A DNA stretch of 64,000 nucleotides, taken from contig CAWDMF010000007.1 in NCBI GenBank assembly GCA_963803185.1, positions 2,718 through 66,717 of the forward strand, given 5' to 3'. The DNA comes from an uncultured Gammaproteobacteria bacterium (GTDB taxonomy: Bacteria; Pseudomonadota; Gammaproteobacteria; SZUA-229). Below, one piece after another: positions 1,094 to 63,392 of the stretch. The position numbers and the translations under genes are program-made. The notes under the pieces are model-generated. The model saw nothing but the letters and a program-made list of their open reading frames with translations. It was not told where the DNA came from and did no database searches. How positions within the stretch are numbered: position 1 is the first letter of the stretch; each line of letters opens with the position of its first letter.

Positions 1094-2842
1094 TTAGAGG
1101 ATTATTTTAACTTCAGTAGAATACTGACTCTCGCGGCCTTCGGTATCTAAAGTAGTCACAACAAAATAATAGGTGCCAGCAGGAAAATCTGTATAAGTAT
1201 AACCGACGGCAGTACCATCATTGATGGTGGTGCTATTAATGTATTGGCCTTGCGTCATGCCATAAGACACTTTGTAACCAGCAATTTCCGATAACGATAT
1301 CGCCGAATTGTCTTCTCTTTCTGCTGGTGCAACCCAGGATAGGTGAATATCGGAGAGTGCATTATTTTCGTCAGTACCGGTGATGGTAATTTTTACGGTA
1401 TGTGTTGTACCATCCACGCTGCTGATAATCAGGCTTTCTGTTAATGTGGCACCCGTGGCCAGATTCTGGATGAGGCTCTGGTTATTAGCGGCAGCGTAGT
1501 TCCAGTTTCCTGTAGTGTTTATGGTGAGACTGCCATAGTTGCCTGTGACTGTCCTGGCTGTAAAAGCGGCTTCACCGGCGTCGCTATCAGTGATATTTAG
1601 TTTACCGTCGATTTCTAACAGGTTATCGCCATCGGGGTCGACATCTTCAGTTACGCTGGCGCGATCAAGGCCGGTGATTAGTGCTGGATTATTGGCTTCG
1701 TCGACGCCATTGATCGTTACCACGACAGTATGGGCTGTACCGTCAACGCTGTTGACGAGCAGTCTGTCGGTTAATGTCGCACCAGTGTTTAGATTCTGTA
1801 TCACGCTCTGGTTGTTATTGGCGGCGAAGTTCCAGTATCCAGTAGTGTTTATGGTGAGCCTGCCGTAGTTACCGTTGACTGTTTTTGCAATAAAGGTCGC
1901 TTCACCGGCATCGCTATCAGTGATATTTAGTTTACCGCCAACCTCTAACAGGTTATCAGTATCGGGATCGATATCTTCAGTTACGCTGGCGCGATCAATC
2001 CCCGTGATGACTGCAGTCTGATTTACTTCATTAGCGCCCCAGATAGTGATAGTTATGTTATGCGTGGTGCCATCCACGCTGCTGATAACCAGGGTGTCCT
2101 TCACTGAATCTACTTCATTTAAACTCTGTATTGCAGGTAAACTGTTATTTAAGACATAAAACCAGTTGCCGCTGATGTCAATGTTAAGTGCGCCATAATT
2201 GCCATTTACTGTCACACCAATAAAAGCAGCCTGACCTGCGTCACTGTCTGTGATGTTAAGTTTACCTATGGAGCGTACTAGATTGTTATAGGTGAAGAGA
2301 TCTTCCTGGATATTACTAAGATCATTGCCGGTTATTACGGCAGCATTGTTTAAATTGCCTGAATCAATAACACCTATTATTGTGATCGTAATAGTATGTG
2401 TTGTACCGTCAACGCTACTGACTACCAGGTTCTCAGTCAGGGTTGCATTGCTTGCCAGGTTTTGAATAGCGCTCTGCTGGTTACCGGCCGCATAGTTCCA
2501 GTTTCCGGCAGTGTCTATATCAAAAATACCATAGTCGCCGTTAACCGTCTTTGCTATAAAGGCTTCTTCACCAGGATCGTTGTCCGTGATATCTAATTTA
2601 CCACTAACTTCTAAAAGGTTGTCGCCATCGGGGTCAGAATCCTCGATAACATTAGCAGAATCTACTCCGTTAATTTTAGCTGTGAGGTTGATGCCGTTAA
2701 TATCGGGTTCTGTGTCTGAGCCAATTTCCGGAGTAATTGCGGCTAGAAAGTCCTCAGTGCTGCAAGCGGGCAAATGCAGCGTCACAAATATAATAAACAG
2801 AATAGACTTGAAACGAGGTTTTAACAAACAGGAAGCTATCAT
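1094..2842 (-). CDS. large surface lipoprotein with four ~95-aa Ig/VCBS-like tandem repeats and FN3-like C-terminal domain
   Basis: Start moved to Met at 2842 (MIASCLL..LPAC lipobox) directly after conserved leader ...ccaATG; four internal repeats (..GKLNITDSDAGEAAF..TVNGNYG..NW..SVDGTTHT..). Confidence 0.7.
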   Translation of the reverse strand: MIASCLLKPRFKSILFIIFVTLHLPACSTEDFLAAITPEIGSDTEPDINGINLTAKINGVDSANVIEDSDPDGDNLLEVSGKLDITDNDPGEEAFIAKTVNGDYGIFDIDTAGNWNYAAGNQQSAIQNLASNATLTENLVVSSVDGTTHTITITIIGVIDSGNLNNAAVITGNDLSNIQEDLFTYNNLVRSIGKLNITDSDAGQAAFIGVTVNGNYGALNIDISGNWFYVLNNSLPAIQSLNEVDSVKDTLVISSVDGTTHNITITIWGANEVNQTAVITGIDRASVTEDIDPDTDNLLEVGGKLNITDSDAGEATFIAKTVNGNYGRLTINTTGYWNFAANNNQSVIQNLNTGATLTDRLLVNSVDGTAHTVVVTINGVDEANNPALITGLDRASVTEDVDPDGDNLLEIDGKLNITDSDAGEAAFTARTVTGNYGSLTINTTGNWNYAAANNQSLIQNLATGATLTESLIISSVDGTTHTVKITITGTDENNALSDIHLSWVAPAEREDNSAISLSEIAGYKVSYGMTQGQYINSTTINDGTAVGYTYTDFPAGTYYFVVTTLDTEGRESQYSTEVKIIL

Positions 2843-3353
2843 TGGTGCTCTCCAACCTACGGGTTGTACGCATCGCATCAGAGGAGTGACTCAAGCTGAA
2901 TGCGATTAAATACGGAAAAAGTATTAGTTTGCGAGCAATTAGGAATCGACCGGTTTATATTTTGTGCAATGAGAATCACTGCATTAACGATTGATGTAGG
3001 AACTATAGCATAGTGTAAAGAATATGATGCATATCTTGTTGAAAATGTGACACAGGTTGTTGGTGAAATGACAGTTTAATATCGATAAAATTTAAAAAAA
3101 CTAATAAAAACAAATAATTATGGATTTTAAATTTTTTAAATATTTATCAGGAGATAATATGGTTTCTGTATAAAAATCAACCAATAAATCAAAGTGAATT
3201 CATTGTTTTATGGCTTTTCTTGGTAAATGTATTGCAATCGAAAATGGGCGGGCCTTTCAGAAAACTCATTATGCTGCATTACATAAGTTTGTGCTGTGGG
3301 GTAAAGTAAAGTGATTCTGATGGTTAAACATATCTAATGTAATAGAGCAGGTA

Positions 3354-4235
3354 ATGACAGAATATTTACAGGCAGATGCGTTAAAAGCCATAGTCGCAGG
3401 GCAAAATGGTATCAACATGGACGTTGTTGTACATAAATCTATTGATTCGACCAATAGTTGGTCTTTGCAGCAATGCAGGGCAGGAAAAATATTACCATTT
3501 GCCTGCTTTGCTGAAGAGCAAAAAGCGGGCCGCGGCAGGCGTGGTAAACAATGGTTGATGTCGGCTGGCACCAATATCGCGCTGAGTATAAGTTGGTCTT
3601 TTGATTTATCGTATCAAAAATTACACTTGTTACCGCTGTCAATTGCGTTGGCAGTTGTTGCTACGTTAGAAGGTTTAAATTTGAAACATGTGCAGATAAA
3701 GTGGCCAAATGATGTTTATGTACGGGGTAAAAAAATTGCTGGTATCTTGATTGAGGCGCAACCTGTTAAAGCGAAATCTGCCGATGGAATAACAGTGGAC
3801 AAATCACCCTTAGGTAAAGTGCGGACCGCAATGGTAATAGGTATTGGTCTAAACTATGACATGTCTTCGTTTGCGGCCATACTGGAGCATAAAAGATATC
3901 AAATACTACCAGATCTGACGGATGTAGAGCATGAAATGAAAAGGCAAGCTATTGAGCAAAAAACAGACCGAATAATTGTGGCATCATCACTGCTGCAAAA
4001 TGTAGTTGAAGTGTGTCAGAATTTTCCGCAAGACTCAAATCAATATTTGGGAAAATTTCGTAAGCAATATGATTTTTGTGAAAACAAAACAGTAGAAATT
4101 GTTCTGGATGATCTGAGGGGGGTAACGGGCATCGCGCAAGGTGTAAGTGATAACGCTGAATTGATCGTACTGATAGATGGTAAAGAGCGGCTGTTTAACA
4201 GTGCGGAAGTAAGTGTGAAAGCTAGCCTGGAATAA
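3354..4235 (+). CDS. birA: biotin--[acetyl-CoA-carboxylase] ligase (no N-terminal HTH)
   Basis: Motifs IDSTNSW, QKAGRGRRGKQW, KWPNDVY typical of BirA catalytic domain; followed by coaX as in many genomes. Confidence 0.8.
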   Translation: MTEYLQADALKAIVAGQNGINMDVVVHKSIDSTNSWSLQQCRAGKILPFACFAEEQKAGRGRRGKQWLMSAGTNIALSISWSFDLSYQKLHLLPLSIALAVVATLEGLNLKHVQIKWPNDVYVRGKKIAGILIEAQPVKAKSADGITVDKSPLGKVRTAMVIGIGLNYDMSSFAAILEHKRYQILPDLTDVEHEMKRQAIEQKTDRIIVASSLLQNVVEVCQNFPQDSNQYLGKFRKQYDFCENKTVEIVLDDLRGVTGIAQGVSDNAELIVLIDGKERLFNSAEVSVKASLE

Positions 4236-4281
4236 TCCTGAGCTATTCTGAGTGGTCATCAGATTTGTCGGATAATAATAA

Positions 4282-5049
4282 ATGATATTAACAGTGGATA
4301 TAGGAAACAGCCGAATCAAATGGGCTTCATGGCAGGCGGAAAAAATTGTCGCACAAGGGGTTGCTGCGTATAAGGCAGATAAAAGTGCAGATGTGTTTGA
4401 TAAATTATTCTCAGCGGTAGAAAAGCCAACGTTTATATTTGCGCTATGTGTTGCCGGAAATAAATTATCTCAGGGGTTGCTCGCATGGAGTAAACAGAAC
4501 TGGCAGCTTGATGTTGAATTCCTGAAAACAGAAAAAAAATTTAATAATGTAATTAATGCCTACGATGATCCCGGGGAGCATGGCGTAGATCGATGGGCAG
4601 CAGTTGTCGCTAGTCACCAAAGTCACCCGGATTTTTCAGTTTGTGTCATTAATGCCGGAACAGCCATAACATTTGATTTAATTAATAAAAATGGGCGGCA
4701 TCTGGGTGGTTATATATTGCCTTCATACGTTACTATGCATAAGGCGTTGTTGATGGATACAGCGAATGTGAAGTCTGCTTTAAATGTGAAGTTTTGCGAA
4801 AACGGTGTGCCGAACAATACTAATGATGCTGTCAATCTGGGGCTGCACAAATTATTGCAGGCAGGTATTCGAGAAATTTGTCAGTTTGCAAAACAAAAAA
4901 TGGATTCTCCAATGCAAATAATTATTAGCGGTGGTTTTGCTGAAACTATTCTGGGCTATCCGGACATGCCGGCCATGCTATACCAGCCGGATTTAGTTAT
5001 GCAGGGTTTGTTTCAGATTATGAAACAGCGGATATCTGAGGGCGAGTAG
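4282..5049 (+). CDS. coaX: type III pantothenate kinase
   Basis: N-terminus MILTVDIGNSRIKWA and overall length match CoaX/Baf family. Confidence 0.85.
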   Translation: MILTVDIGNSRIKWASWQAEKIVAQGVAAYKADKSADVFDKLFSAVEKPTFIFALCVAGNKLSQGLLAWSKQNWQLDVEFLKTEKKFNNVINAYDDPGEHGVDRWAAVVASHQSHPDFSVCVINAGTAITFDLINKNGRHLGGYILPSYVTMHKALLMDTANVKSALNVKFCENGVPNNTNDAVNLGLHKLLQAGIREICQFAKQKMDSPMQIIISGGFAETILGYPDMPAMLYQPDLVMQGLFQIMKQRISEGE

Positions 5050-7048: not shown

Positions 7049-8239
7049 ATGTCTAAGGAAAAGTTTGAAAGAACCAAGCCACACGTAAACGTAGGCACAA
7101 TTGGTCACGTAGACCACGGTAAAACCACACTGACAGCAGCGATGACGAAAGTTATGGCAGAAGCGCAGGGCGGTGAAGTGAAAGCCTTTGATCAAATTGA
7201 TAATGCACCGGAAGAGCGTGCACGCGGCATCACCATCGCGACCTCACACGTGGAGTATGAGAGCCCGAACCGTCACTATGCGCACGTTGACTGTCCTGGA
7301 CACGCCGACTATGTGAAGAACATGATTACCGGTGCAGCGCAGATGGACGGTGCTATCCTGGTTGTATCAGCTGCAGATGGCCCGATGCCTCAGACCCGTG
7401 AGCACATTCTGCTGTCACGCCAGGTTGGTGTGCCATACGTGCTTGTTTACATGAACAAGGCGGACATGGTTGACGACGAAGAGCTGTTAGAGCTGGTTGA
7501 GATGGAAATCCGTGAGCTGTTAGACGCTTATGAATTCCCGGGCGATGACACCCCGATCATTATTGGCTCAGCACTGAAAGCATTAGAAGGCGACACCAGT
7601 GAAATCGGCACGCCATCAATCATCAAGCTGGTAGAGGCGATGGATGACTACATTCCGCAGCCAGAGCGTGCGGTAGATCAGCCATTTTTGATGCCTGTTG
7701 AGGACGTATTCTCGATCTCGGGTCGCGGTACGGTGGTAACCGGTCGTATCGAGCGTGGAGTGATCAACGTTGGTGAAGAGATCGAGATCGTCGGCATCCG
7801 TGACACCCAGACAACAACCTGTACCGGTGTTGAGATGTTCCGCAAATTGCTGGACACAGGTGAAGCCGGTGATAACGTTGGCCTGTTGCTGCGTGGCCTG
7901 AAGCGTGAACAGGTTGAGCGCGGCCAGGTATGCTGTAAGCCGGGTTCTGTTAACCCGCACACCAAGTTTGAGTGTGAAGTTTACATATTAAGTAAAGATG
8001 AAGGTGGTCGTCACACGCCATTCTTCAATAACTACCGTCCACAGTTCTACTTCCGTACGACTGACGTGACAGGTGCATGTGATCTGCCGGAAGGTACCGA
8101 GATGGTAATGCCTGGCGATAACATAAAAATGATAGTGACCCTGATCAACCCGATTGCGATGGAAGAAGGTTTACGCTTTGCGATTCGTGAAGGTGGTCGT
8201 ACCGTTGGTGCGGGTGTGGTTGCTAAAATTATTGAGTAA
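7049..8239 (+). CDS. tuf: elongation factor Tu (copy 1, tufB-like position)
   Basis: [11 protein letters not shown]-loop, DCPGH, NKAD motifs; 396 aa. Confidence 0.97.
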
Positions 8240-8295
8240 TTGTTTGCTCTAAATGAGTATGGCGGGAGGTAAGACCATGTCCTACCTCTCGTTAC

Positions 8296-8480
8296 GACGT
8301 ACATGGATGTGGCAAGTGCGGAAAATGCAGGAGCGATTTTCAGCCGACGTACATGGATGTGGCAAGTGCGGAAAATGCAGGAGCGATTTTCAGCCGACGT
8401 ACATGGATGTGGCAAGTGCGGAAAATGCAGGAGCATTTTTTCCGCCAAGTACATGGATGTGGGAAATGCAGGTATTGCAT
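8296..8480. repeat. tandem repeat, 50-bp unit x ~3.7
   Basis: ACATGGATGT starts at 8301, 8351, 8401, 8451 (exact 50-bp period); unit cgacgtacatggatgtggcaagtgcggaaaatgcaggagcgattttcagc, last copy degenerate. Confidence 0.85.
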
Positions 8481-8499
8481 AAGCAAATATCTGCCTGTT

Positions 8500-8575
8500 A
8501 GGCCAGTGGCTCAATTGGTAGAGCAGCGGTCTCCAAAACCGCAGGTTGGGGGTTCGAGTCCCTCCTGGCCTGCCA
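8500..8575 (+). tRNA. tRNA-Trp (anticodon CCA)
   Basis: AGGCCAG..CTGGCCT acceptor, anticodon loop CTCCAAA, GGTTCGAGTCC T-arm, CCA. Confidence 0.9.
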
Positions 8576-8602
8576 ATATTAATAAGATGGCAGGTGGTTA
8601 AA

Positions 8603-8980
8603 ATGGTCGCCAAGACCGAAGAAGTAGTTTCAAGCAAACTGGATACATTCAAGTTGATGCTAGCAATAGCGGTACTGATATTCGGTATTGTTGGCTTTTA
8701 TTACTACGAAGCTGAATCGCAGTTATATCGCGTGCTGGGCGTCGTGTTTGCGGTGCTGGTAGCTATCGCTATCAGTTCTACCACGCGTTTAGGGCAGGGT
8801 TTAATAGGTTTTGGTCGTGAAGCGCGTATGGAAGTGCGGAAAGTGGTATGGCCAACGCGTCAGGAAACCGTGCAGACAACCTTTATGGTTATTGTTGCTG
8901 TAATTATTATCGGTATCTTTCTCTGGTTAATTGATATGTTGCTTTCGCAGGCAATACAGTTAATAACGGGAGGCGCATAG
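8603..8980 (+). CDS. secE: preprotein translocase subunit SecE
   Basis: Start trimmed to Met after tRNA-Trp; conserved [18 protein letters not shown] motif; precedes nusG. Confidence 0.85.
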
Positions 8981-40653: not shown

Positions 40654-40680
40654 TACGGGCGGCTGAGTATATAGACATTA

Positions 40681-40712
40681 AAAACCGGCTTTAAGCTGGT
40701 TTTTTTTCGGCC
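40681..40712 (+). terminator. rho-independent terminator of alpha operon
   Basis: AAAACCGGCTTTAAGCTGGTTTTTTTTCGG hairpin plus T-run. Confidence 0.7.
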
Positions 40713-41372
40713 TGTTAATTTTTTAAACTCTGCAGCTAAATCTACTCTGCTTAATTAGAACTTGATGAATTTGCAATAAATGGAACCATTTTCTGGTTTT
40801 ACACGTTAATTTTGTATGAGTTTTGTTAAATTTCACAGGCATTAAATGAAAAATGAGCAAATACTGCCTTTTTCACGCGGCTTAAGCTGATTGACGTATC
40901 GGGGGGATAAGCTGGCTTGCAATGATTTTGGTGATGGGCAAGGGGAGGTTGCAGGCATTGTGATCAACAATGCCTGGCCTCATTGCTTTAGCCGCTGAGT
41001 TCTAGCCGTTAATTTGCAAGCAGGATGGTCACATAATCAATAACAGTTGCCCTGCTCTCTCTTTGAGCTATTGTATTAAACCATAAGCTGCCATCGTGCA
41101 ACTTATGGTTTTTATGTATTATGAAACAGGTTATAAACATATTTATAATGTATGTCATTGAACGGGCAGGGATAACTCATCGAATCAGGGAAGCTCTGAG
41201 CCAGTTGAATAATTTTAGGCTGGCTGAAAAATAGTCCATATCATCCCGAAGATTGCCGTAATATAATAATTTATTACCCCTTACTTTGTGAGGCATATGA
41301 ACACATTCTGTGCACTGTTTTAATCAATATGGCTAATTAACTTAATCAGAGATTCCCTGGTAACAGCAGTTT

Positions 41373-41921
41373 ATGAGTATTGTTAATTTATTCAAATCAC
41401 GTGTTCAGCCTGCCGATCGGTTTGAACGGATTGTCTCACCGTATATCAATAATTTATACAATTTTGCCTTTCGCCTCTGTCCATGTGCTGATGATGCTGA
41501 GGAACTGGTGCAAATGCTATTAACACGCCTGTATCCAAAGTTAGAAGAACTGGAACAGGTGGAGTCACTTCGCCCCTGGTTAACGCGTTCATTATATAAC
41601 CTGTATGTCGATAGTTACCGTAAACAGCAGCGCACGATGGCGATTATCAGTCCGGAAGAAATGCCAGAAAATGTTATGTCACAGGATAAAACCCCGTATG
41701 AAAAAATTGAACTAACACACAATCAGCAAATCATTACGCAAGCCATGCTGCAGTTAAATGAAGACCAACGTCTAGTTATGATGTTACATGATGCAGAAGG
41801 TTATACGCTGATTGAGTTAGCGGACATCCTGCAAACACCGATTGGCACACTTAAATCACGTTTACACCGGGGCAGGAACCTGGTAAGAGAATTAACAGAA
41901 ATGGAACTATTTGATAACTAA
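41373..41921 (+). CDS. ECF (sigma-70 family group IV) sigma factor
   Basis: Region 2 and region 4 HTH (..GYTLIELADILQTPIGTLKSRLHRGRNLV..), 182 aa. Confidence 0.8.
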   Translation: MSIVNLFKSRVQPADRFERIVSPYINNLYNFAFRLCPCADDAEELVQMLLTRLYPKLEELEQVESLRPWLTRSLYNLYVDSYRKQQRTMAIISPEEMPENVMSQDKTPYEKIELTHNQQIITQAMLQLNEDQRLVMMLHDAEGYTLIELADILQTPIGTLKSRLHRGRNLVRELTEMELFDN

Positions 41922-41969
41922 ATACGTTCTATTACTAAGGGATATAGGAACTAAACAGGGTAAGAGCTA

Positions 41970-42644
41970 ATGAGTTGCGAACGAATACAGAATTTACTTA
42001 ACGATTATATTGATGACACACTTTCAGTTTTACATGCTGAAGTGGTTAAAAATCATTGCCACACATGTGATGACTGTGCGCGGCAGCTTAAGGGCTTACG
42101 CATACAGAAAGAGTCACTAAGCTCATTGCCGGTAGCGCCTGCATCTGATGGCTTTGAAAAACGGGTGTTTGCCAGGGCAATTCAAGAGGCCCCAGCAACG
42201 AAGAAGATCCATAGCAAATCAGGCAGTTTTTATAAATTGGCTACAGCGGCAATGCTTTCTGCACTGGTACTGTGGTTAGGCCTGTTTAATGATACAAAAA
42301 CAGGGAAAGATGATCTATACCTTGTAACTGTAGGTGATGAAGTGCGTACAATAAAAGTTGCCATAGACTCAGAGCAGGCGCTGGATGCGGTGAATATGCG
42401 AGTGGAACTGTCCGATAATCTTGAATTAAAGGGTTATGGAAACAAGAAACAAATTCACTGGACGACACACTTAAGCGAAGGTGTTAATGTGATTTCATTG
42501 CCGATTGTTGGCATCGCGCAGGGTGAGGGCGACATAACAACACGCATTGAACTAAATGGTAAAGAAAAAGTAATGCGTATAAAAACAGAGTATAAGCTGC
42601 CTGACAGTGTTCTGTATCAAGGTGATATGGTTCTGCAAGGATAG
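41970..42644 (+). CDS. zinc-finger (ZAS) anti-sigma factor, single-pass membrane protein
   Basis: N-terminal H-x3-C-x2-C motif (HCHTCDDC), central TM helix (LATAAMLSALVLWLGLF), periplasmic C-domain; immediately downstream of ECF sigma. Confidence 0.7.
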   Translation: MSCERIQNLLNDYIDDTLSVLHAEVVKNHCHTCDDCARQLKGLRIQKESLSSLPVAPASDGFEKRVFARAIQEAPATKKIHSKSGSFYKLATAAMLSALVLWLGLFNDTKTGKDDLYLVTVGDEVRTIKVAIDSEQALDAVNMRVELSDNLELKGYGNKKQIHWTTHLSEGVNVISLPIVGIAQGEGDITTRIELNGKEKVMRIKTEYKLPDSVLYQGDMVLQG

Positions 42645-42649
42645 TTTTT

Positions 42650-43126
42650 ATGAATGGCTTATTGAAAAAACGATTTATTTTGCCGTGTTGCGTAGTGTGT
42701 ATGTGTGCGCCATCGGTTTTGTTGGCCTCACCAGATGATTTAGATGAAATAACCATCCGTATAATCGAGGACGATGCCTATATCCCCGGTGTTCATAGCC
42801 TGGAACTGCCTGTTTTTGGCAATGATGATGACCGTGATAAGGATACTAAGGACGATGCTATTGATGACAGGAATGAGGATAAGGATGATATCGAAGAACA
42901 GGAAGATACTGACGAGACCGACGAACCTGATGAAGCAGATGATGATCGGGATGAGCTAGAGGAACCTGATGATCTGGATGAGCCAGATGAGCCAGATGAG
43001 CCAGATGAGCCAGATGAGCCAGATGAGCCAGATGAGCCAGATGAGCCAGATGAGCCAGATGAGCCAGATGAGCCAGATGAGCCAGATGAGCCAGATGACT
43101 ATGATGATCATGACGATCATGATTAG
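42650..43126 (+). CDS. secreted hyper-acidic repeat protein, (EPD)13 tract and DDHDDHD tail
   Basis: Sec signal peptide (..APSVLLASPDD), then >50% D/E; 13 tandem GATGAGCCA units encode EPDEPDEPD... Confidence 0.6.
   Translation: MNGLLKKRFILPCCVVCMCAPSVLLASPDDLDEITIRIIEDDAYIPGVHSLELPVFGNDDDRDKDTKDDAIDDRNEDKDDIEEQEDTDETDEPDEADDDRDELEEPDDLDEPDEPDEPDEPDEPDEPDEPDEPDEPDEPDEPDEPDEPDDYDDHDDHD
42977..43093 (+). repeat. 9-bp in-frame microsatellite (GATGAGCCA)x13
   Basis: Perfect 13-unit array inside CDS 42650..43126. Confidence 0.95.
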
Positions 43127-43321
43127 CCAGATGAGTCTGAGGAATCAGAAAAGTCAGAATCACCAGGAATAGCATTAGCAGCAAACATGTCATATCCGTT
43201 GCCCGGGTTTTTAATGTATTAGCACTGGATTTCCTTTAGCCTGCTGCCGGGTAATTTATGGCAGCATAAAAGATTGCGGGGATATAGTTCAGAGGCAGCA
43301 TGTGCAATATAATGAGCACTT

Positions 43322-44674
43322 ATGGTTAAGTGTGAAAAATTTGTTTGCTCAGCGCTTCTGTTGCTAGTCCTTTTTGGCCAGCTTTCTGCTGAGCCTGTCT
43401 CCGTCTCGGTTCCAGTGTCGCCGGTCAGGCAGGAAAATACTCTCTCGGATAATCTGTCCCTTGCCGGCCAGCTATATAATCAGGGTGAATATGCACAGGC
43501 CAAAGTCTATTTTGAGCTCGCGTTAAATCAGGCTCAGCAGCAGGCAAAACCAGCACAAACGATTTATTATAATCTTGGTTCAGTTTGTTACCAGCTAAAG
43601 CAGTATGATGAAAGTAAGCTGTATTTTGAAAAGCTGCTTAATCATAATAAGCTGAAAGCCGTTGCCTACTATAACCTTGCTTTAATAGAGAATAAGCTGG
43701 GCAATAAAAAATCCACCATTGATTATTTACATCAAAGCAAAAACGCTTCACCCGACACGCAGCTAGCAAAACTGGTTGATCAGCAGTTACTGAAAATAAG
43801 TAATCAGGAACCACAAAGAAAAAAAGCAGTTACTTATAAAGACTGGAATGCCTATCTCTACCTTAGCCCCGGTTACGACTCAAATATAAAATTAGAACCC
43901 GCAGAAGTTGCTTCTAATGAATCCGGAAGCTTTTTGCAGTTTTACGGTCTTTTTGATAAGCGCATAGCTGGCAAAGGTTATGGAAAAAAAGATCCTGCCT
44001 TATTAATCACCTCGTCAGTATTTTTATCTAACTATTTTTCAACTGACTTTAATGATTACAATATATTCGATATAGGGCTGCGCTATTTATTCCCGGTAAA
44101 TAAGTGGCGAAATAGCATTGAATTTAATATAAAAAAATCTACCTATGGCCACAGAGACTACCAGCAATCTTACGCGGCAACGTTTAAGACGCGGCGCAGG
44201 TTTTCTGATGGCAATACGTTAAGGTTGCGTTATCGATATGAACAGCTAAACAGCCTGGATCCGCTGTTTGATTATCTTGAAGGTTACCGGCAAAAATTAA
44301 GACTGGGTTACCAGTTTAAGTTACAGAATGATGCTGTGAATCTCTGGTACGAGCTTGAATTAAACGACAGGCAAAACACGGCCAATCTCAATTATTCACC
44401 AACAAGAAATACCTTTCGTGTGCGTTATGAGAAAAAAATCAATGCCACAAATAAGGTGTATGGCGAGCTGGAGTATCGACACAGTGATTACGATCCAACT
44501 CCTGTCCAGGACAGGCTGGATAAACGATCAGGTTACCTGCTGGCTTACGTAAACGATGTGGCACGAGACTGGCAATTGTTGGCGAGATGGGGATTTAGAA
44601 GCAATAACTCCACAGAATCTGTTTATTCATATGACCGACACGTGGCACTGCTGACATTAAGAAAGTCATTCTAG
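43322..44674 (+). CDS. outer-membrane protein: N-terminal TPR repeats + C-terminal beta-barrel (possible Slam/DUF560-like translocator)
   Basis: Signal peptide; TPR-like helices (..YNQGEYAQAKVYFELAL.., ..AYYNLALIENKLGN..); C-terminal ~300 aa with alternating Y/R/N-rich strands, terminal ..LTLRKSF beta-signal. Confidence 0.45.
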   Translation: MVKCEKFVCSALLLLVLFGQLSAEPVSVSVPVSPVRQENTLSDNLSLAGQLYNQGEYAQAKVYFELALNQAQQQAKPAQTIYYNLGSVCYQLKQYDESKLYFEKLLNHNKLKAVAYYNLALIENKLGNKKSTIDYLHQSKNASPDTQLAKLVDQQLLKISNQEPQRKKAVTYKDWNAYLYLSPGYDSNIKLEPAEVASNESGSFLQFYGLFDKRIAGKGYGKKDPALLITSSVFLSNYFSTDFNDYNIFDIGLRYLFPVNKWRNSIEFNIKKSTYGHRDYQQSYAATFKTRRRFSDGNTLRLRYRYEQLNSLDPLFDYLEGYRQKLRLGYQFKLQNDAVNLWYELELNDRQNTANLNYSPTRNTFRVRYEKKINATNKVYGELEYRHSDYDPTPVQDRLDKRSGYLLAYVNDVARDWQLLARWGFRSNNSTESVYSYDRHVALLTLRKSF

Positions 44675-50812: not shown

Positions 50813-52228
50813 TATTCACTAAAATCATCCAGCGGGCTTTTTATATTGTCATGGTTCTTTTGCATCACGTGTGTGTAGATTTCTGTGGTTTTAACATCGT
50901 TATGCCCTAACAATACCTGTAACACCCGAATATTTTCACCATTTTCTAATAAGTGTGTGGCAAAGCTATGTCTATTATTCCGAGCTCGGAATAATAGACA
51001 TAATGCCGAGTTCCGGATTATTCCGAGTAGCAAACCGAAACACGGTGAATCACGGGATCTTGAGTACATCGAACTCGGCATAATCAGAGGCTATTCAGAA
51101 AAGCCAGTAGCTGATCATCGGGCCGATAACGTGCCATGGGTATATTTGAAGGAGTTGTCGTCGCCAAGGCTTTTTCTTTAAGTTTTAGATCTGCGTGGAG
51201 ATAGATATAGGTTGTTTCTACAGACTCATGACCAAGCCAGAGCGCAATAACAGTGTGATCAAAGCCAATAAAAGAAGACAGCCTGATTATTCCGAGTAAT
51301 CAAGCAGTGGATACCCTCATAAACCATTGAATGTAGGTATATGTCAGACGCATGTCAACATGCTACTCGGAATAATCCGGAACTCGGCATTATGTCTAAG
51401 CGTATGTGGCGAAGTGCGTTTAATGATCCCGGCCTTAATTCTTGCACTTGATACCGCTTTTTGTAGTGCGCTTTTATTAAGATGATGTCGCATAACTTTC
51501 CCGGAGCGCGGATCAGTCGAGCGTACTTTAGAAGGAAACAAATATTGCCAGCCCAATGAAATGTTTGCTTTGCTGTATTTACGACTTAATGCTGTCGGCA
51601 AATAAACTTCACCATAACCATCGGCTAAATCTTTATTGTGCAGTTGCTTTACCACTTCAATTTGGTCACGAATGGGTTGATGCAAAGCATCAGGGAAAAT
51701 TGTAGTGCGATCTTTGTCGCCTTTGGCATTTCTGACATAAATTTGATTATTTTCAAAATCAATGTCATGAATGCGTAAACGAATAACTTCCAACGAGCGT
51801 AAACCAGAGCCATACATCAAGTAGGCTAATGTTTTTGCCGTGCCCGACATGCAGGTCAACAAGGACTTTACTTCATCTTTACTTAATACGGTAGGCAGTC
51901 TTTTCCCTTTAGTTGTACGCCTGGCGCGGATATCAAGATCCATTGGCATATCAAGTACTTTTTTATAAAGGAACATAATGGCATTAAATGCCTGGTTCTG
52001 AGTTGAAGCTGCGACGTTGCGATTAACCGCAAGATGGCTTAAGAACCGTTCAATTTCAAACTTACCCATCTCCCTGGGGTGTTTCTTTCCATTGAAACGA
52101 ATAAATTTTAAGATCCATTCAACATACGATTTTTCAGTATTGTATGCGTAATGATAAAACCGAAGTGTTTCGCGTACCTGATCCATTAATCTGGTCGCAG
52201 TGGGTCGAAACGTAACTGACTCATCCAT
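50812..52228 (-). pseudogene. intI: integron integrase gene interrupted by a ~425-bp MITE insertion
   Basis: N-terminal part 51393-52228 has IntI signature (LPTALSRKYSKANISLGWQYLFPS, additional domain) and ends ..SPHTLRH then runs into element; C-terminal part ([36 protein letters not shown]) resumes at 50970 in continuity. Confidence 0.85.
50971..51398. mobile_element. non-autonomous MITE-like element with 36-bp perfect terminal inverted repeats and subterminal ATTATTCCGAG repeats
   Basis: TIR AGACATAATGCCGAGTTCCGGATTATTCCGAGTAGC at 50996-51031 and reverse-complemented at 51363-51398; ATGTCT present at both junctions; no coding capacity. Confidence 0.75.
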
Positions 52229-58838: not shown

Positions 58839-59636
58839 GGTTCCGTCGCAAATAAGTGAATTGGCGCCAACATTTCCTGAACGTCATTCCGCTTACGCAG
58901 CCAGGGCATAGAATTGATCAGCAAATGATAAATTACGCGAGATGTTTTTTTTCATTTGTCCTTTTTTGATCATAGCAACCAGCTCAATTCCAGCCAATGT
59001 GCTTTGAGCTGAATTGAAGTTTTTGAAGCCAAGCATTGGTCGTGTTAACCGTTTTATTCGTCGGTGATCCTGCTCTATGATGTTGTTCAAGTATTTACAT
59101 TGACGCACTTTAACTCGCTTATTGTTGTCTTCATTGAACTGAGTTAAAGCGGCTTTATTAGAGCCACTTTTATCGATGTTTACTAAGCCAGGCTTGCCGT
59201 TTCTTTCAATAGCTTTGGTGAAATATCTTAGCGCAGCCGCTTTATCGCGCTTGGCGGTGAGGAGGAAGTCGATGGTATTTCCCTGCTTATCGACAGCTCG
59301 GTAATAATATTTCCACTCGCCTTTAACCTTGATATAGGTCTCGTCCATTCTCCATCGATCACCTGGACGTCTCTTCTTTTGATGGAAAGCCTTTTCAAGT
59401 TGAGGCGAGTAGAAAGTAACCCAGCGATTCAATGTGCTATGATCAACCTCGATGCCTCGCTCTGCCACCATCTCTTCGATATTCCGATAGCTAAGGGCAT
59501 ATGCACAATACCATCTTACACATTGAAGAATAATTTCACGAGGGAAGTGTCGCGATTTAAAACTGATCATATGGAGCTACTTGAAGTAAAGTTGAGTTTC
59601 AACATTATACTCGAACGGCCTGAATGCGACAAAACC
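58839..59636 (-). mobile_element. IS6-family insertion sequence (~798 bp)
   Basis: 14-bp imperfect terminal IRs GGTTCCGTCGCAAA (58839) and GGTTTTGTCGCATT (revcomp at 59623-59636); single transposase ORF; no flanking 8-bp duplication. Confidence 0.75.
58893..59570 (-). CDS. IS6-family (IS26-like) DDE transposase
   Basis: MISFKSRHFPREIILQCVRWYCAYALSYRNIEEM..MDETYIKVKG..YYYRAVD typical of IS6 Tnp. Confidence 0.85.
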   Translation of the reverse strand: MISFKSRHFPREIILQCVRWYCAYALSYRNIEEMVAERGIEVDHSTLNRWVTFYSPQLEKAFHQKKRRPGDRWRMDETYIKVKGEWKYYYRAVDKQGNTIDFLLTAKRDKAAALRYFTKAIERNGKPGLVNIDKSGSNKAALTQFNEDNNKRVKVRQCKYLNNIIEQDHRRIKRLTRPMLGFKNFNSAQSTLAGIELVAMIKKGQMKKNISRNLSFADQFYALAA

Positions 59637-59690
59637 CCGGTAATTAGTCGAAATAACAAACCACATATTCAGCTTGAAAAAGGACAGTAT

Positions 59691-62600
59691 ATGATCACCG
59701 GGCAATTTAGCTGGGAACAGTGCCCAAAATCACTCTCTATTCCCAGTGAGACAGGCCTGGTTTATTTAACAATAGACAATACAAAAGTAGCGTTACCTGA
59801 CTTTCGCCAGGGCAAGTTGTGGCTAAAAACAACCAGCGCTTCAACACATCAAAACAACCGATTAGAGCTGCAGGTATTTAGAAAAATATCTGACACCATC
59901 CCCATGCGTGTTATCACGCAAATTAAACTTGATGTATCAGGTCAGCAACGTGAAATTATCCTCGATGGCGCTTTACTTAATGGCTTTAGCCCGAGTGCCA
60001 TTGATAGTCCTCTGCCATCACAGTTGGATAAAGGTGGACGTTTAAAAGTCCAGATAAGACCAGGGCAATGGACAGTTGATATCAGTGCTTTTAACCCGCG
60101 ACAACTAGAGTCGATTGTACTTCCTTCCTTTAAGACCCCCTGGCCAGGTAATGAAGTGTGGGTAGTAGACCAGCAGACACAGCTCCGCCTGATAAAAGTA
60201 GTCGACAAAAATAGTATTGATCCGAATCAAACACAACTGCCACAGCGTTGGAAATCCTATCCCGCATACAATATGCAAGGTGGTGAAAAATTATCGTTTA
60301 AAGTCATTAAACGTGGTGATCCTGACCCGGAGCCCGATCAATTAAGTATTAAAAAAAGAATATGGCTGGATTTTGATGGCAATGGATTTACCATAAACGA
60401 CAAACTCACCGGCACGCTTACAAAGCAATGGCGACTAAATGCGTCGTCAGATGTCTCGTTAGGACAGGTCACACTTAATGGTAAGCCACAATTTATAACA
60501 ACAGACAGCAATAATAAACAAGGCGTTGAGGTAAGACACGGGAATCTTGATCTATCCGCTGATAGTCGCGTAATAGGCGACACGCGAATACTGTCATCCG
60601 GTGGCTGGGATATGGACTTTAATCAGGCTGAGGCTACGCTATTTCTGCCGGCTGGGTGGCGGTTACTGTCTTTGACAGGTGCGAATACCAGCAACACCTG
60701 GATTGACAAATGGTCACTCCTGGATCTATTTATGGTGCTGATAACTGCGATTGCTATCTACAAGTTGTGGGGGATTCGATGGGGTGTATTAGGGTTGGTT
60801 GCCTTAATTATCTTGTGGCATGAGTACGATGCACCACAGTATATATGGATAAATCTGATCATCGCTATTGCCATGTTGCGATCTTTGCCACAGGGTCGTT
60901 TTTATAAAATTATCACTAGCTATCGTCTGTTGACATCTGTTGTTCTGTTGCTCATTACATTACCGTTTATCGTTAATCAGGCACGAACGGCCATTTATCC
61001 GCAACTCGAATTTAGTAACATGAGTGCAAGTAACTCCTTTGCACGGGATGCTGTCTACCCGGCTTCAACTGTATCTCCAGTACAAAAACTGTCTAGTTCG
61101 GTCGCTGAAAGGGCGTTAATGGCAGATGAGGAACCTATGCTCAGCAGTGTAGGACGAGGTAAGTCAGGCTATCTGTATGAAAAGAAACATAAGCAAATAA
61201 TCACCATCGATCCAGACGCGATGATACAAACCGGCCCAGGCCTGCCATCCTGGACACTGCATCAGTTTCACTTACGCTGGGATGGGCCTGTCCGTCACGA
61301 TCAGACGATTTCAATGACGTTGCTATCGCCGGCGATGAACTCACTGCTCAATATACTGAGAATCGCACTGGTATTGCTACTGGCCTGGCGTCTTCTTGAT
61401 ATTGGTTCATTGAAAATACCAAAACTTCCCGTTAAAGCAGAAAGCAAGACGTTAGTAACAATATTTCTAGTCGGTAGCCTGTTTGGTTTATCACCAACAC
61501 CTGCAGATGCTGCCTATCCGTCACAGGAAATGCTTAATCAATTATATGATGAGCTAACCAGGGAGCCAGAGTGTTTACCCCAGTGTGCGAGTATCGAGGC
61601 ACTGGATATTGATTTATCGTCGGAGCAGCTCACCCTGAACATGCGAGTTCATGCACATGAGAATGTCTCGCTGCCACTACCAGTCCCCGTTAAACAATGG
61701 TCCCCCTCTAAGATAAGCGTCGATGATAAATCTTCAGCCATCCTTTCGCGTCAGAGTGATTCGACACTATGGATCTATTTAACAGAAGGCAGTCACACGG
61801 TTAAATTTAGTGGTCGTGTAACAGCTTTAGATCTTCTGCAACTTAGCTTTCCATTAAAACCGCATCATATAGCATTAACCATGAAAGGTTGGACAGAGGA
61901 GGGTATGGACAGCCAGGCGTATAAAATTACAGCACTCTCTTTTCAACGGATTGCAGATAAAACCAGTCCTTCAAAGACTAATAAGATAGAGCAAAAAGAG
62001 ATTCCCGTTTATGCTGAAGTAACAAGAGAATTACAGCTGGGACTGGACTGGTACGTTACGACAACCGTACAAGGTGTTTCAGGTAGTGCTTACCCGGTTA
62101 TTTTAGAGATCCCCTTACTGACGGGTGAATCGGTGGTAACCGACAATATTAAAGTGGTTGATGGCCATGCAATCATTACACTCAGCCGCCCAGATCAGAA
62201 AATAAGGTGGACATCAAAACTTAAAATTAATGATCAGATTAACCTAAAGGCAAGTGAGCAGGGCAGGTTCATCGAGAAATGGTCACTCAATTCAAGTGCT
62301 ATCTGGCACATTGACTATGATGGTATACCTGTCATCTATCACCAACGGTATGCGAACCAGTGGCAGCCGGAATGGCAGCCATGGCCGGGTGAAGAGGTAG
62401 TCATTTATGTCAGCCGTCCTGAAGGGGTTAAGGGCAACACTATTACCATTGATAGCAGTAAGCTTTCATTAACACCTGGTGAGCAAATAACAGCATCAAA
62501 ACTGGCCTTTAATCTGCGCAGTAGCCTCGGTGGACAGCATACTATTAAGATTCCTGAAAACACTGATCTGCAGACGGTCATGATAAATGGTCAGAGTATG

Positions 62601-63392
62601 CCTATTCGGCGTACCGATGAAGGTATCGCTTTGCCGGTATCACCCGGTAATCAAAAAGTTGAAATAAACTGGCATGAGACACGTGGTATCAGTCCATTTT
62701 ATAAATCTTCTGAGGTTGATCTAGGAACGCAGAGTGTCAATCATGGGCTTCAAATTGAGCCAGGTTATAACCGTTGGGTATTATTTACATCAGGACCGAC
62801 TATGGGACCGGCTGTTTTATTCTGGGGTGTGTTTGGTGTAATTATTCTTATTGCTATCGGATTAGGACGTGTAAAAGGTACTCCGCTGAGTACACTTCAG
62901 TGGTTGATACTGGCAATTGGATTAAGCGCATCTGAACCCTGGGCCGTGATAATCATCGCCGTGTGTATCCTGGCACTTAAAGCGCGCGCTTCCCTAAACA
63001 CAGTGACTTTGAGCAATACAAAATTTAACTTTATCCAAATAGGACTTGTGGGCTTAATGTTCTTCTCGATCAGTACATTGATCGTAGCAATCCAACAAGG
63101 ACTGCTCGGTTCACCTGACATGCAAATCATTGGTAATGGATCCAACGCCAATCAACTCAACTGGTTTAGTGATCGCATATCATCAAATACACCATCTGCA
63201 TTGGTAATATCGGTACCTGTCTTTGCTTATCGTCTGATGATGCTGGCCTGGTCGATTTGGTTGGCATTTGCGCTTATAAAATGGGCACAATGGGGGTGGG
63301 GTAGCTTCACGAGCCAGGAGTATTGGCGAAACGTATCAATAAAGAACATCTCTACTAAGAAGAAAGGAGAGAGTGATGAATCAAAAAACTAG
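59691..63392 (+). CDS. giant (1233 aa) multi-pass membrane protein of unknown function; possibly 5'-truncated by the IS6 element
   Basis: Open frame is continuous back into the IS; first Met after IS end at 59691; TM cluster mid-protein and ~6 TM helices at C-terminus, no signal peptide. Confidence 0.5.
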   Translation: MITGQFSWEQCPKSLSIPSETGLVYLTIDNTKVALPDFRQGKLWLKTTSASTHQNNRLELQVFRKISDTIPMRVITQIKLDVSGQQREIILDGALLNGFSPSAIDSPLPSQLDKGGRLKVQIRPGQWTVDISAFNPRQLESIVLPSFKTPWPGNEVWVVDQQTQLRLIKVVDKNSIDPNQTQLPQRWKSYPAYNMQGGEKLSFKVIKRGDPDPEPDQLSIKKRIWLDFDGNGFTINDKLTGTLTKQWRLNASSDVSLGQVTLNGKPQFITTDSNNKQGVEVRHGNLDLSADSRVIGDTRILSSGGWDMDFNQAEATLFLPAGWRLLSLTGANTSNTWIDKWSLLDLFMVLITAIAIYKLWGIRWGVLGLVALIILWHEYDAPQYIWINLIIAIAMLRSLPQGRFYKIITSYRLLTSVVLLLITLPFIVNQARTAIYPQLEFSNMSASNSFARDAVYPASTVSPVQKLSSSVAERALMADEEPMLSSVGRGKSGYLYEKKHKQIITIDPDAMIQTGPGLPSWTLHQFHLRWDGPVRHDQTISMTLLSPAMNSLLNILRIALVLLLAWRLLDIGSLKIPKLPVKAESKTLVTIFLVGSLFGLSPTPADAAYPSQEMLNQLYDELTREPECLPQCASIEALDIDLSSEQLTLNMRVHAHENVSLPLPVPVKQWSPSKISVDDKSSAILSRQSDSTLWIYLTEGSHTVKFSGRVTALDLLQLSFPLKPHHIALTMKGWTEEGMDSQAYKITALSFQRIADKTSPSKTNKIEQKEIPVYAEVTRELQLGLDWYVTTTVQGVSGSAYPVILEIPLLTGESVVTDNIKVVDGHAIITLSRPDQKIRWTSKLKINDQINLKASEQGRFIEKWSLNSSAIWHIDYDGIPVIYHQRYANQWQPEWQPWPGEEVVIYVSRPEGVKGNTITIDSSKLSLTPGEQITASKLAFNLRSSLGGQHTIKIPENTDLQTVMINGQSMPIRRTDEGIALPVSPGNQKVEINWHETRGISPFYKSSEVDLGTQSVNHGLQIEPGYNRWVLFTSGPTMGPAVLFWGVFGVIILIAIGLGRVKGTPLSTLQWLILAIGLSASEPWAVIIIAVCILALKARASLNTVTLSNTKFNFIQIGLVGLMFFSISTLIVAIQQGLLGSPDMQIIGNGSNANQLNWFSDRISSNTPSALVISVPVFAYRLMMLAWSIWLAFALIKWAQWGWGSFTSQEYWRNVSIKNISTKKKGESDESKN

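Follow-up and report, generated by a model that had tools for sequence, protein, structure and literature searches.

What kind of envelope system is encoded by a four-gene cassette that opens with an extracytoplasmic function (ECF) sigma factor gene and lies directly behind the alpha ribosomal operon of an uncultured gammaproteobacterium of the GTDB lineage SZUA-229? We addressed this question in a 64,000-nucleotide (nt) stretch of DNA, hereafter the window, which corresponds to positions 2,718 to 66,717 of contig CAWDMF010000007.1 (assembly GCA_963803185.1). The cassette occupies 41373..44674 and consists of four plus-strand open reading frames (ORFs) for a sigma factor, a membrane anti-sigma factor, a small Sec-exported acidic protein and an outer-membrane protein (OMP). 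An initial annotation, made from the sequence without database searches, had identified the same four genes and proposed that the last two form a Slam-type (DUF560) translocator and its cargo. We found that the cassette is a self-contained unit in which a sigma/anti-sigma switch is combined with a two-protein envelope device, and that Slam, although a reasonable analogy, is the wrong family for its OMP. The reading that we tentatively favour, while rating it somewhat short of an even chance, is that the ECF-induced disordered small protein docks on the OMP and threads into or through its barrel.

The genomic linkage of the four genes was evaluated as follows. In the window, the cassette is flanked on one side by the last genes of the alpha ribosomal operon (rpoA, rplQ) and on the other by a uvrA gene in divergent orientation, and a terminator hairpin was found 3' of rplQ at around 40680-40711, where the initial annotation had assumed one. 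The intergenic gaps are 48 nt between the sigma and anti-sigma genes, 5 nt between the anti-sigma and small-protein genes and 195 nt between the small-protein and OMP genes, so that the tight spacing originally described applies to the first two gaps and not to the last. The order rpoA-rplQ-sigma-anti-sigma-small protein-OMP-uvrA was retained in eight loci from reference metagenome-assembled genomes (MAGs) and one Joint Genome Institute (JGI) contig of the same lineage (L001-L009). Homologs of the OMP with 24-33% identity were found in different surroundings and were still preceded by a sigma factor, an anti-sigma factor of about 220 amino acids (aa) and one or two small secreted proteins (L010, L012, L013, L015, L016/L017). 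In total, the four genes co-occurred in at least seven distinct genomic neighbourhoods, at OMP identities down to 24%. When metagenomes were searched with the conserved motif of the small protein (described below), 14 loci were obtained, all 14 of which had the sigma and anti-sigma genes upstream, and the OMP gene followed wherever the contig reached far enough; on the partial contigs L014 and L018, the end of a repeat-rich tail lies directly upstream of the OMP gene. The gene order was identical in every related locus examined and is thus not a product of chance: the synteny in relatives that the initial annotation implied was observed, and the four genes are passed on together. The carriers are uncultured sulfur-type gammaproteobacteria, the MAGs of which derive from sediments and vents.

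In the most distant cassette (L012), a second secreted low-complexity protein of 309 aa, rich in Ala, Ser and Glu, is encoded at 4060-4989 between the anti-sigma gene and the gene for the motif-bearing protein; the N-terminal motif of the small-protein family is absent from it. Other neighbours vary among loci. In L016 and L017, a gene for an Rrf2-family regulator precedes the cassette and one for a dCache/HAMP methyl-accepting chemotaxis protein follows it, and in L013 the cassette is adjoined by genes for MtrC-like multihaem cytochromes of 1,020 aa and NHL-repeat proteins. Multihaem cytochromes were considered as a general partner of the cassette and rejected, being present only in L001 and L013 among the neighbourhoods examined.

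The small exported protein is an unusual product of the cassette. Its gene (42650..43126, plus strand) encodes 158 aa comprising a signal peptide that ends in VLLA, with the mature protein starting at SP, an N-terminal motif (SPDDLDEITIRIIEDD...GVHSLELP) and a disordered hyper-acidic tail. Sec export of a hyper-acidic protein, as first suggested, agrees with the signal peptide and with the composition of the mature protein, which is 132 aa long with 55% Asp+Glu and a net charge of -66; the earlier figure of more than 50% acidic residues is correct for this mature form and not for the precursor, which has 46%. Beyond residue 60 or so, the sequence is a low-complexity acidic repeat, and the protein ends in DDYDDHDDHD. 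The tail contains an exact (EPD)13 tract at aa 111-149, as previously read, which appears in the DNA as a 9-bp unit present in 16.6 copies at 42950-43098. This 9-bp repeat generates shadow ORFs over the gene, an (HLA)n frame on the minus strand at 42858-43193 and an (MSQ)n frame on the plus strand at 42969-43172, which could mislead gene callers; the opposite-strand (HLA)n frame was considered as a real gene and then attributed to the repeat. The small protein matched neither Pfam nor NCBIfam families, and its exact sequence was absent from a collection of 15 billion proteins; gene callers may miss the gene or call it otherwise.

Comparison of the orthologs separated what is constant in this family from what is variable. 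All have a signal-peptidase-I signal followed by the motif [SA]P-D-D-L-D-E-I-T-I-R-[IVM]-[IM]-[DE]...[HY]-x-L-x-L-P and a low-complexity tail. The N-terminal motif of about 30 residues is kept in all orthologs, including those in cassettes whose OMP has diverged to 24% identity. The disordered tail, rich in Pro, Glu and Asp, evolves fast. The tails were built from (EPD)n, (EEVEQP)n, (PEAPSIPEPVS)n, (QPEQPA)n, (APQPEA)n, (DDVVD)n or, in L010, L013, L016 and L017, His/Met/Asp/Glu repeats, and in one case from (AADKAKEK)n. Total lengths range from 149 to 273 aa, with tail length varying about 2.5-fold, and the Asp+Glu content ranges from 15 to 47%, with tails only 15-19% acidic in L007-L009. Hyper-acidity is thus a feature of the lineage of the window and not of the family. 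What stays constant in the family is the N-terminal motif together with the presence of a long, soluble and probably unfolded tail.

The OMP gene (43322..44674, plus strand) encodes 450 aa with a signal peptide, three tetratricopeptide repeats (TPRs) and a capping helix at about residues 34-160, a 14-stranded beta-barrel at residues 175-449 and a C-terminal Phe. The architecture described in the initial annotation was borne out by Pfam matches above cut-off to TPR_1, TPR_2, TPR_8 and TPR_12 within residues 46-145 and by an AlphaFold2 (AF2) model computed from 37 homologs (mean predicted local distance difference test (pLDDT) score of 90.5), in which seven helices form the three TPRs and the cap and 14 beta-strands form the barrel, the strand number that had been expected. 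A Foldseek search with the full-length model returned the TPR-plus-barrel protein BcsC as the best match with a low TM-score, and the folds nearest to the barrel were those of CymA and OmpG, both of which have 14 strands. With the lumen and lipid faces assigned by the hydrophobic periodicity of the strand sequences and not by model coordinates, the lumen face carries 26 Lys/Arg versus 13 Asp/Glu residues, and the net charge of this face is positive in 35 of the 37 members. For one member with an inferred negative lumen the neighbour could be read; its tail is rich in Lys and Ala and not acidic (a single case). Family-wide conserved positions (G184, D186, N188, G321, E346, N348, R350, S359, R362, Y390 and their neighbours) are located at strand ends, which are likely extracellular given that the TPR domain is taken as periplasmic.

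An exhaustive search with a profile of the barrel alone yielded 3,077 representatives at E <= 0.001, of which 499 were at E <= 1e-30; these represent clusters drawn at 50% identity, and the cassette was checked in a handful of them. Nearly all of the best 150 matches were 410-460 aa long with the barrel starting near residue 150. Named matches to the OMP were 'hypothetical' or 'TPR repeat' proteins of uncultured Gammaproteobacteria and Thiotrichaceae MAGs, including that of a tubeworm endosymbiont.

We then asked to which barrel family the OMP belongs. The type 11 secretion system (T11SS) is defined by DUF560 OMPs (PMC8406197; PMC12282271), for which the Pfam model is PF04575 (SlipAM/DUF560). 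This model did not match the window OMP at E <= 1 and was not among the 25 most frequent families of its 37 closest relatives. The commonest family was instead PF10082 (BBP2_2), which, judged by E-value and not by curated cut-offs, matched 15 of the 37 closest relatives (best E 6.6e-8) and 48 of 74 sampled members of the wider family (best E 3e-11). Among the same 74, TIGR03016 (PEP-CTERM-associated OMP) matched 34 and EpsL 13, while PF04575 was found weakly in 11 (best E 5e-6) and the TPR_Slam model PF24575 weakly in 14 (best E 4e-5). Neither PF10082 nor TIGR03016 matched the window OMP itself in Pfam and NCBIfam scans. Because PF10082 and TIGR03016 matches outnumber those to SlipAM and TPR_Slam among the 74 members, the sequence evidence places the family, as a sister or sub-family with fused TPRs, closest to the uncharacterised BBP2_2 barrels and connects it only faintly to Slam. 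PF10082, TIGR03016 and TIGR03014 (EpsL) thus give the best family matches for the barrel across the family, although matches to the clade of the window itself are below threshold and the models cover the barrel part only. These families are described in Pfam and NCBIfam as plain beta-barrel OMPs of PEP-CTERM or polysaccharide loci and are functionally uncharacterised, and we found no open-access paper on PF10082/BBP2_2.

The neighbouring gene does not agree with a T11SS either. T11SS cargo is unified by a C-terminal eight-stranded barrel (PMC12282271), whereas the small protein has no Pfam or NCBIfam domain and thus no C-terminal TbpBBD or lipoprotein-C-type barrel, being instead disordered with a conserved N-terminal motif. 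The main T11SS cluster (cluster 1) frequently has TonB and TonB-dependent receptor genes in its neighbourhood (PMC8406197), whereas no such genes were found in the neighbourhoods read (window type, L010, L012, L013, L015 and L016/L017), where the OMP was always coupled to an ECF sigma/anti-sigma pair; the term 'sigma' is absent from the main text of both PMC8406197 and PMC12282271. Shared with Slam are a single Sec-dependent OMP in which a periplasmic TPR domain precedes a 14-stranded barrel, and a Sec-exported protein encoded alongside. Slam membership of the OMP and a T11SS cargo role of its neighbour, as initially proposed, are therefore not supported, while a Slam-like working mode, in which the OMP handles an adjacently encoded exported protein, is possible. 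We found no description in the open-access literature of an ECF cassette with a TPR/beta-barrel partner, and the four-gene module is apparently undescribed.

The regulatory half of the cassette agreed with its first identification. The sigma factor (41373..41921, plus strand; 182 aa) matched Pfam Sigma70_r2 and Sigma70_r4_2 above cut-off and NCBIfam TIGR02937 with 79.6 bits (cut-off 42.9), and no NCBIfam equivalog model reached its cut-off. It carries regions 2 and 4 only, which places it among the ECF (group 4 sigma-70) factors. The anti-sigma factor (41970..42644, plus strand; 224 aa) matched zf-HC2 (PF13490) with 25.8 bits (cut-off 22.2) and is laid out as a cytoplasmic zinc-binding anti-sigma (ZAS) domain, one transmembrane segment at about residues 87-106 and a conserved periplasmic beta-rich domain. 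C3, H29, C33 and C36 were invariant in 30 homologs. With the zf-HC2 domain, the H-x3-C-x2-C motif plus a fourth upstream ligand and the gene next to that of the sigma factor, the protein is assigned by its sequence to ZAS class I, and these residues are its predicted zinc ligands. The profile of its N-terminal domain matched RsiW (5wuq) with an E-value of 3e-6, with weaker matches to DdvA and RsrA. Conservation along the protein is highest in the periplasmic part, the AF2 model of which was of low confidence (pLDDT of around 50), and no relative of this part was detectable in Pfam, NCBIfam or PDB sequences. The pair resembles RsiW/RsrA-type ZAS systems in the invariant H-x3-C-x2-C with an N-terminal Cys, the single-pass membrane topology, a GGAAC/CGT-type promoter and likely autoregulation, and differs from them in having two additional obligate envelope partners and a periplasmic domain without a detectable relative.

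Two ECF-type promoter-like sites of the form GGAAC-N17-CGT(G/T) were found in the window, both within the cassette and on the plus strand. The upstream site (GGAACCATTTTCTGGTTTTACACGTT, 40782..40807) is located about 590 nt before the sigma ATG. The internal site (GGAACTATTTGATAACTAAATACGTT, 41903..41928) runs across the stop codon of the sigma gene at a distance of 42 nt from the anti-sigma ATG, and it recurs at the equivalent place in all of the 15 full cassettes, about 45-65 nt upstream of the anti-sigma ATG. Since it is kept while the stop codon of the sigma gene shifts (proteins of 182-210 aa), a constraint at the DNA level is indicated. Over all loci, there were 25 matches to the pattern as compared with about 1.3 expected from composition (about 19-fold), 22 of which were at the two cassette positions. 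Upstream sites before the sigma gene were also present in L003, L005, L006, L010, L016 and L017, those of the last three ending 8-9 nt before the sigma ATG. The pattern is thus likely the cognate promoter of the sigma factor, as predicted from its distribution, and because of these positions activation would lead to more anti-sigma factor and small protein, and to more sigma factor where an upstream site exists.

Sites of this type also preceded other genes in single genomes. In L001, a gene for a 910-aa multihaem cytochrome with many CxxCH motifs (1098-3905) is inserted between rplQ and the sigma gene, with GGAAC-N17-CGTG 75 nt upstream of it, and may belong to the sigma regulon there. In L009, the region 7438-8941, 3' of the OMP gene, has an extra site before genes for a 289-aa lipoprotein and a TlpA/ResA-like thioredoxin (WASWCLPC), which are possible further regulon members and would hint at an envelope-redox theme. 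The upstream site of the window lies in a 720-nt gap between rplQ and the sigma gene (40654-41372), while the gap in the closest relative (L002) is 175 nt and has no upstream site; the long gap could represent a long 5' leader or a lineage-specific insertion. A remnant gene or RNA in this gap was considered and rejected, as tblastn with the L001 cytochrome returned nothing, all ORFs were of 49 aa or less and Rfam gave no match that passed its gathering score.

The OMP gene appears to be expressed differently. No ECF-type site was found before it, and a conserved element (ATGTGCAATATAATGAGCACTT, 43298..43321, plus strand) abuts its ATG, with a -10-like TATAAT exactly 8 nt before the start codon and no Shine-Dalgarno sequence. 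The spacing between the hexamer and the ATG is fixed in all nine loci of the window clade, with a TGn in seven of the nine, none having a Shine-Dalgarno sequence and each ATG opening a signal peptide. The OMP gene of this clade thus apparently has its own predicted sigma-70-type promoter and a leaderless mRNA. Clear GC-rich terminator hairpins with T-runs were found at the junction of the small-protein and OMP genes in L010, L015, L016 and L017, and a weak terminator-like hairpin with a T-run is present in the window (43194..43213, plus strand); the 195-nt gap as a whole folds no better than shuffled sequences (z = +0.8). Control of all three downstream genes by the ECF factor, as initially proposed, is therefore likely for the anti-sigma and acidic-protein genes and is not supported for the OMP gene, which lacks an ECF-type site and has its own sigma-70-like -10 element.

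How might these four products work together? In the reading that we tentatively favour, the anti-sigma factor would presumably sense the inducing signal through its conserved periplasmic domain. The ECF response would raise the output of the small protein, whereas the OMP would already be in place, being apparently transcribed on its own from a sigma-70-type promoter (in the window clade). After Sec export, the conserved N-terminal motif would serve as a docking signal for the TPR domain, and the unfolded, mostly polyanionic tail would enter or cross the narrow, positively lined barrel, to be displayed or released at the cell surface or to occupy the pore. With a recognition signal that is conserved, an unfolded passenger that varies and a barrel that carries its receptor domain in the periplasm, the pair would follow a dedicated partner-plus-pore logic. 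Such a logic would resemble in principle that of Slam/T11SS and two-partner secretion, with a different, BBP2_2-like barrel family and a different kind of cargo. In two-partner secretion (TpsA/TpsB), a conserved N-terminal recognition element likewise precedes a variable passenger and a periplasmic receptor domain is fused to the barrel, and in the threading of RcsF through OMPs a disordered segment resides inside a barrel lumen. Both comparisons are functional analogies only. The cassette has no Omp85/POTRA or TPS domain, its barrel has 14 strands instead of 16, and the small protein is not a lipoprotein. A stronger version, which we consider rather unlikely, is that the cassette encodes an unrecognised ECF-controlled one-component system for outer-membrane secretion or display, in which a BBP2_2-like 14-strand barrel with a TPR receptor recognises an N-terminal signal of about 30 residues and moves disordered, mostly polyanionic cargo through its cationic lumen to the cell surface without ATP. 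A Donnan potential across the outer membrane might help to drive such secretion.

Several points weigh against docking and threading. Both the contact between the small protein and the OMP and the crossing of the outer membrane are steps that we infer; the lumen charge was derived from strand periodicity in the sequence, the co-variation of tail and lumen charge is one case, and the promoters are motif-based predictions. Electrostatics is not the whole story, given the weakly acidic tails of L007-L009. Among curated families, those nearest to the barrel (TIGR03016, EpsL) are associated with polysaccharide systems and not with protein export. Moreover, the N-terminal motif could equally bind the periplasmic domain of the anti-sigma factor, which would make the small protein a regulator instead of cargo, and tails rich in Pro or in Ala and Lys are reminiscent of the spacers with which TonB and TolA span the periplasm, a resemblance that favours a tether or sensor.

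The last two points lead to the main alternative, a serious one that we rate somewhat below the favoured reading, namely a trans-envelope sensor akin to cell-surface signalling. In it, the OMP would bind an external ligand at its conserved outer rim and the small protein, as a periplasm-spanning tether or co-regulator, would connect the TPR domain with the periplasmic domain of the anti-sigma factor, such that signal-dependent loss of the small-protein link frees the sigma factor to act on a real regulon elsewhere. Such a device would account for the strong conservation of the anti-sigma periplasmic domain, for the short, strand-like character of the small-protein motif, for tails comparable to TonB-type (Pro-rich) or TolA-type (Ala/Lys/Glu) spacers and for the family-invariant OMP residues at the inferred extracellular strand ends, which are unusual for a plain pore. 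The apparent expression of the OMP independently of the ECF promoter and the ECF-type sites before the 910-aa cytochrome gene (L001) and the lipoprotein and TlpA-like thioredoxin genes (L009) are consistent with it as well. A fixed spanning distance is, however, difficult to reconcile with the roughly 2.5-fold variation of tail length, the small protein has no conserved C-terminal domain for a second partner, and the only two motif sites in the 64-kb window both lie in the cassette, while the production of the small protein from the strongest conserved promoter of the sigma factor itself fits a cargo as well as a regulator.

Three further explanations rank lower. The disordered protein could be an ECF-induced periplasmic cation or metal sponge, comparable in principle with SilE and PcoE, with the OMP acting separately as a porin for ions or anionic solutes; the mature net charge of -66, the DDHDDHD end, the His/Met/Asp/Glu repeats of four loci (L010, L013, L016, L017) and genes linked to metals or redox chemistry in some neighbourhoods (for an RND/CzcB-like pump in L018, an ArsR-type regulator in L015 and multihaem cytochromes in L001 and L013) point in this direction. 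We nevertheless consider a sponge improbable, as the tail chemistry is too varied for one ligand, with (PEAPSIPEPVS)n, (QPEQPA)n and (AADKAKEK)n being poor chelators, and as neither the strictly conserved N-terminal motif nor the obligate linkage to the TPR-barrel gene is explained. Export of an anionic polymer through the OMP, as by EpsL/TIGR03016 porins or the TPR-barrels PgaA and BcsC, with the small protein being incidental, would agree with the TIGR03016 (34/74) and EpsL (13/74) matches of the family and with the inferred basic lumen. No PEP-CTERM, exosortase or exopolysaccharide genes, including those for glycosyltransferases, Wza/Wzc or synthases, were found in the neighbourhoods read, however, and the constant partners of the OMP are the sigma factor, the anti-sigma factor and the small protein only, which makes this a very improbable explanation. 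A genuine Slam/T11SS (DUF560) exporting an acidic cargo deserves no more credence: the TPR-plus-14-strand architecture, the weak minority matches to PF04575 (11/74) and PF24575 (14/74) and the Sec-exported neighbour speak for it, but PF04575 misses the window OMP, PF10082 and TIGR03016 dominate the family, TonB and TonB-dependent receptor neighbours are missing from the loci read and the small protein lacks the C-terminal barrel by which T11SS cargo is recognised (PMC12282271), so that Slam membership is already largely refuted.

If the docking-and-threading reading is right, the cassette adds a widespread four-gene module to the ECF sigma systems, as judged from about 3,000 clusters matching the barrel-only profile, a handful of which were checked for the cassette. 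It would also provide a test case for how an unfolded, highly charged protein meets or crosses the outer membrane by means of a small 14-stranded barrel with a TPR receptor, and, if true, an ECF-controlled threading barrel would be convergent with Slam/T11SS and distinct from it in mechanism and evolution. For the TPR-fused branch of the uncharacterised BBP2_2/TIGR03016 barrels, the cassette provides a first functional handle and a concrete genomic context. For annotation, caution is in order, as TPRs combined with a 14-strand barrel do not by themselves identify a Slam/T11SS protein. Experiments could start from the predicted promoter motif GGAAC-N17-CGTG and from the conserved N-terminal signal of the small protein, and heterologous expression will be needed for such tests because the carriers are uncultured.

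Two further features were noted elsewhere in the window. At 59379-63392 on the plus strand lies an ORF of 1,337 aa with a TTG start and no Pfam match at E <= 1e-5. A tyrosine recombinase/integrase (Phage_int_SAM_4 and Phage_integrase) is encoded on the minus strand at 51344-52228, a few kb past uvrA, a major facilitator superfamily (MFS) gene and ssb, and is followed by many short ORFs; an integrated element or integron-like region may have its edge here.

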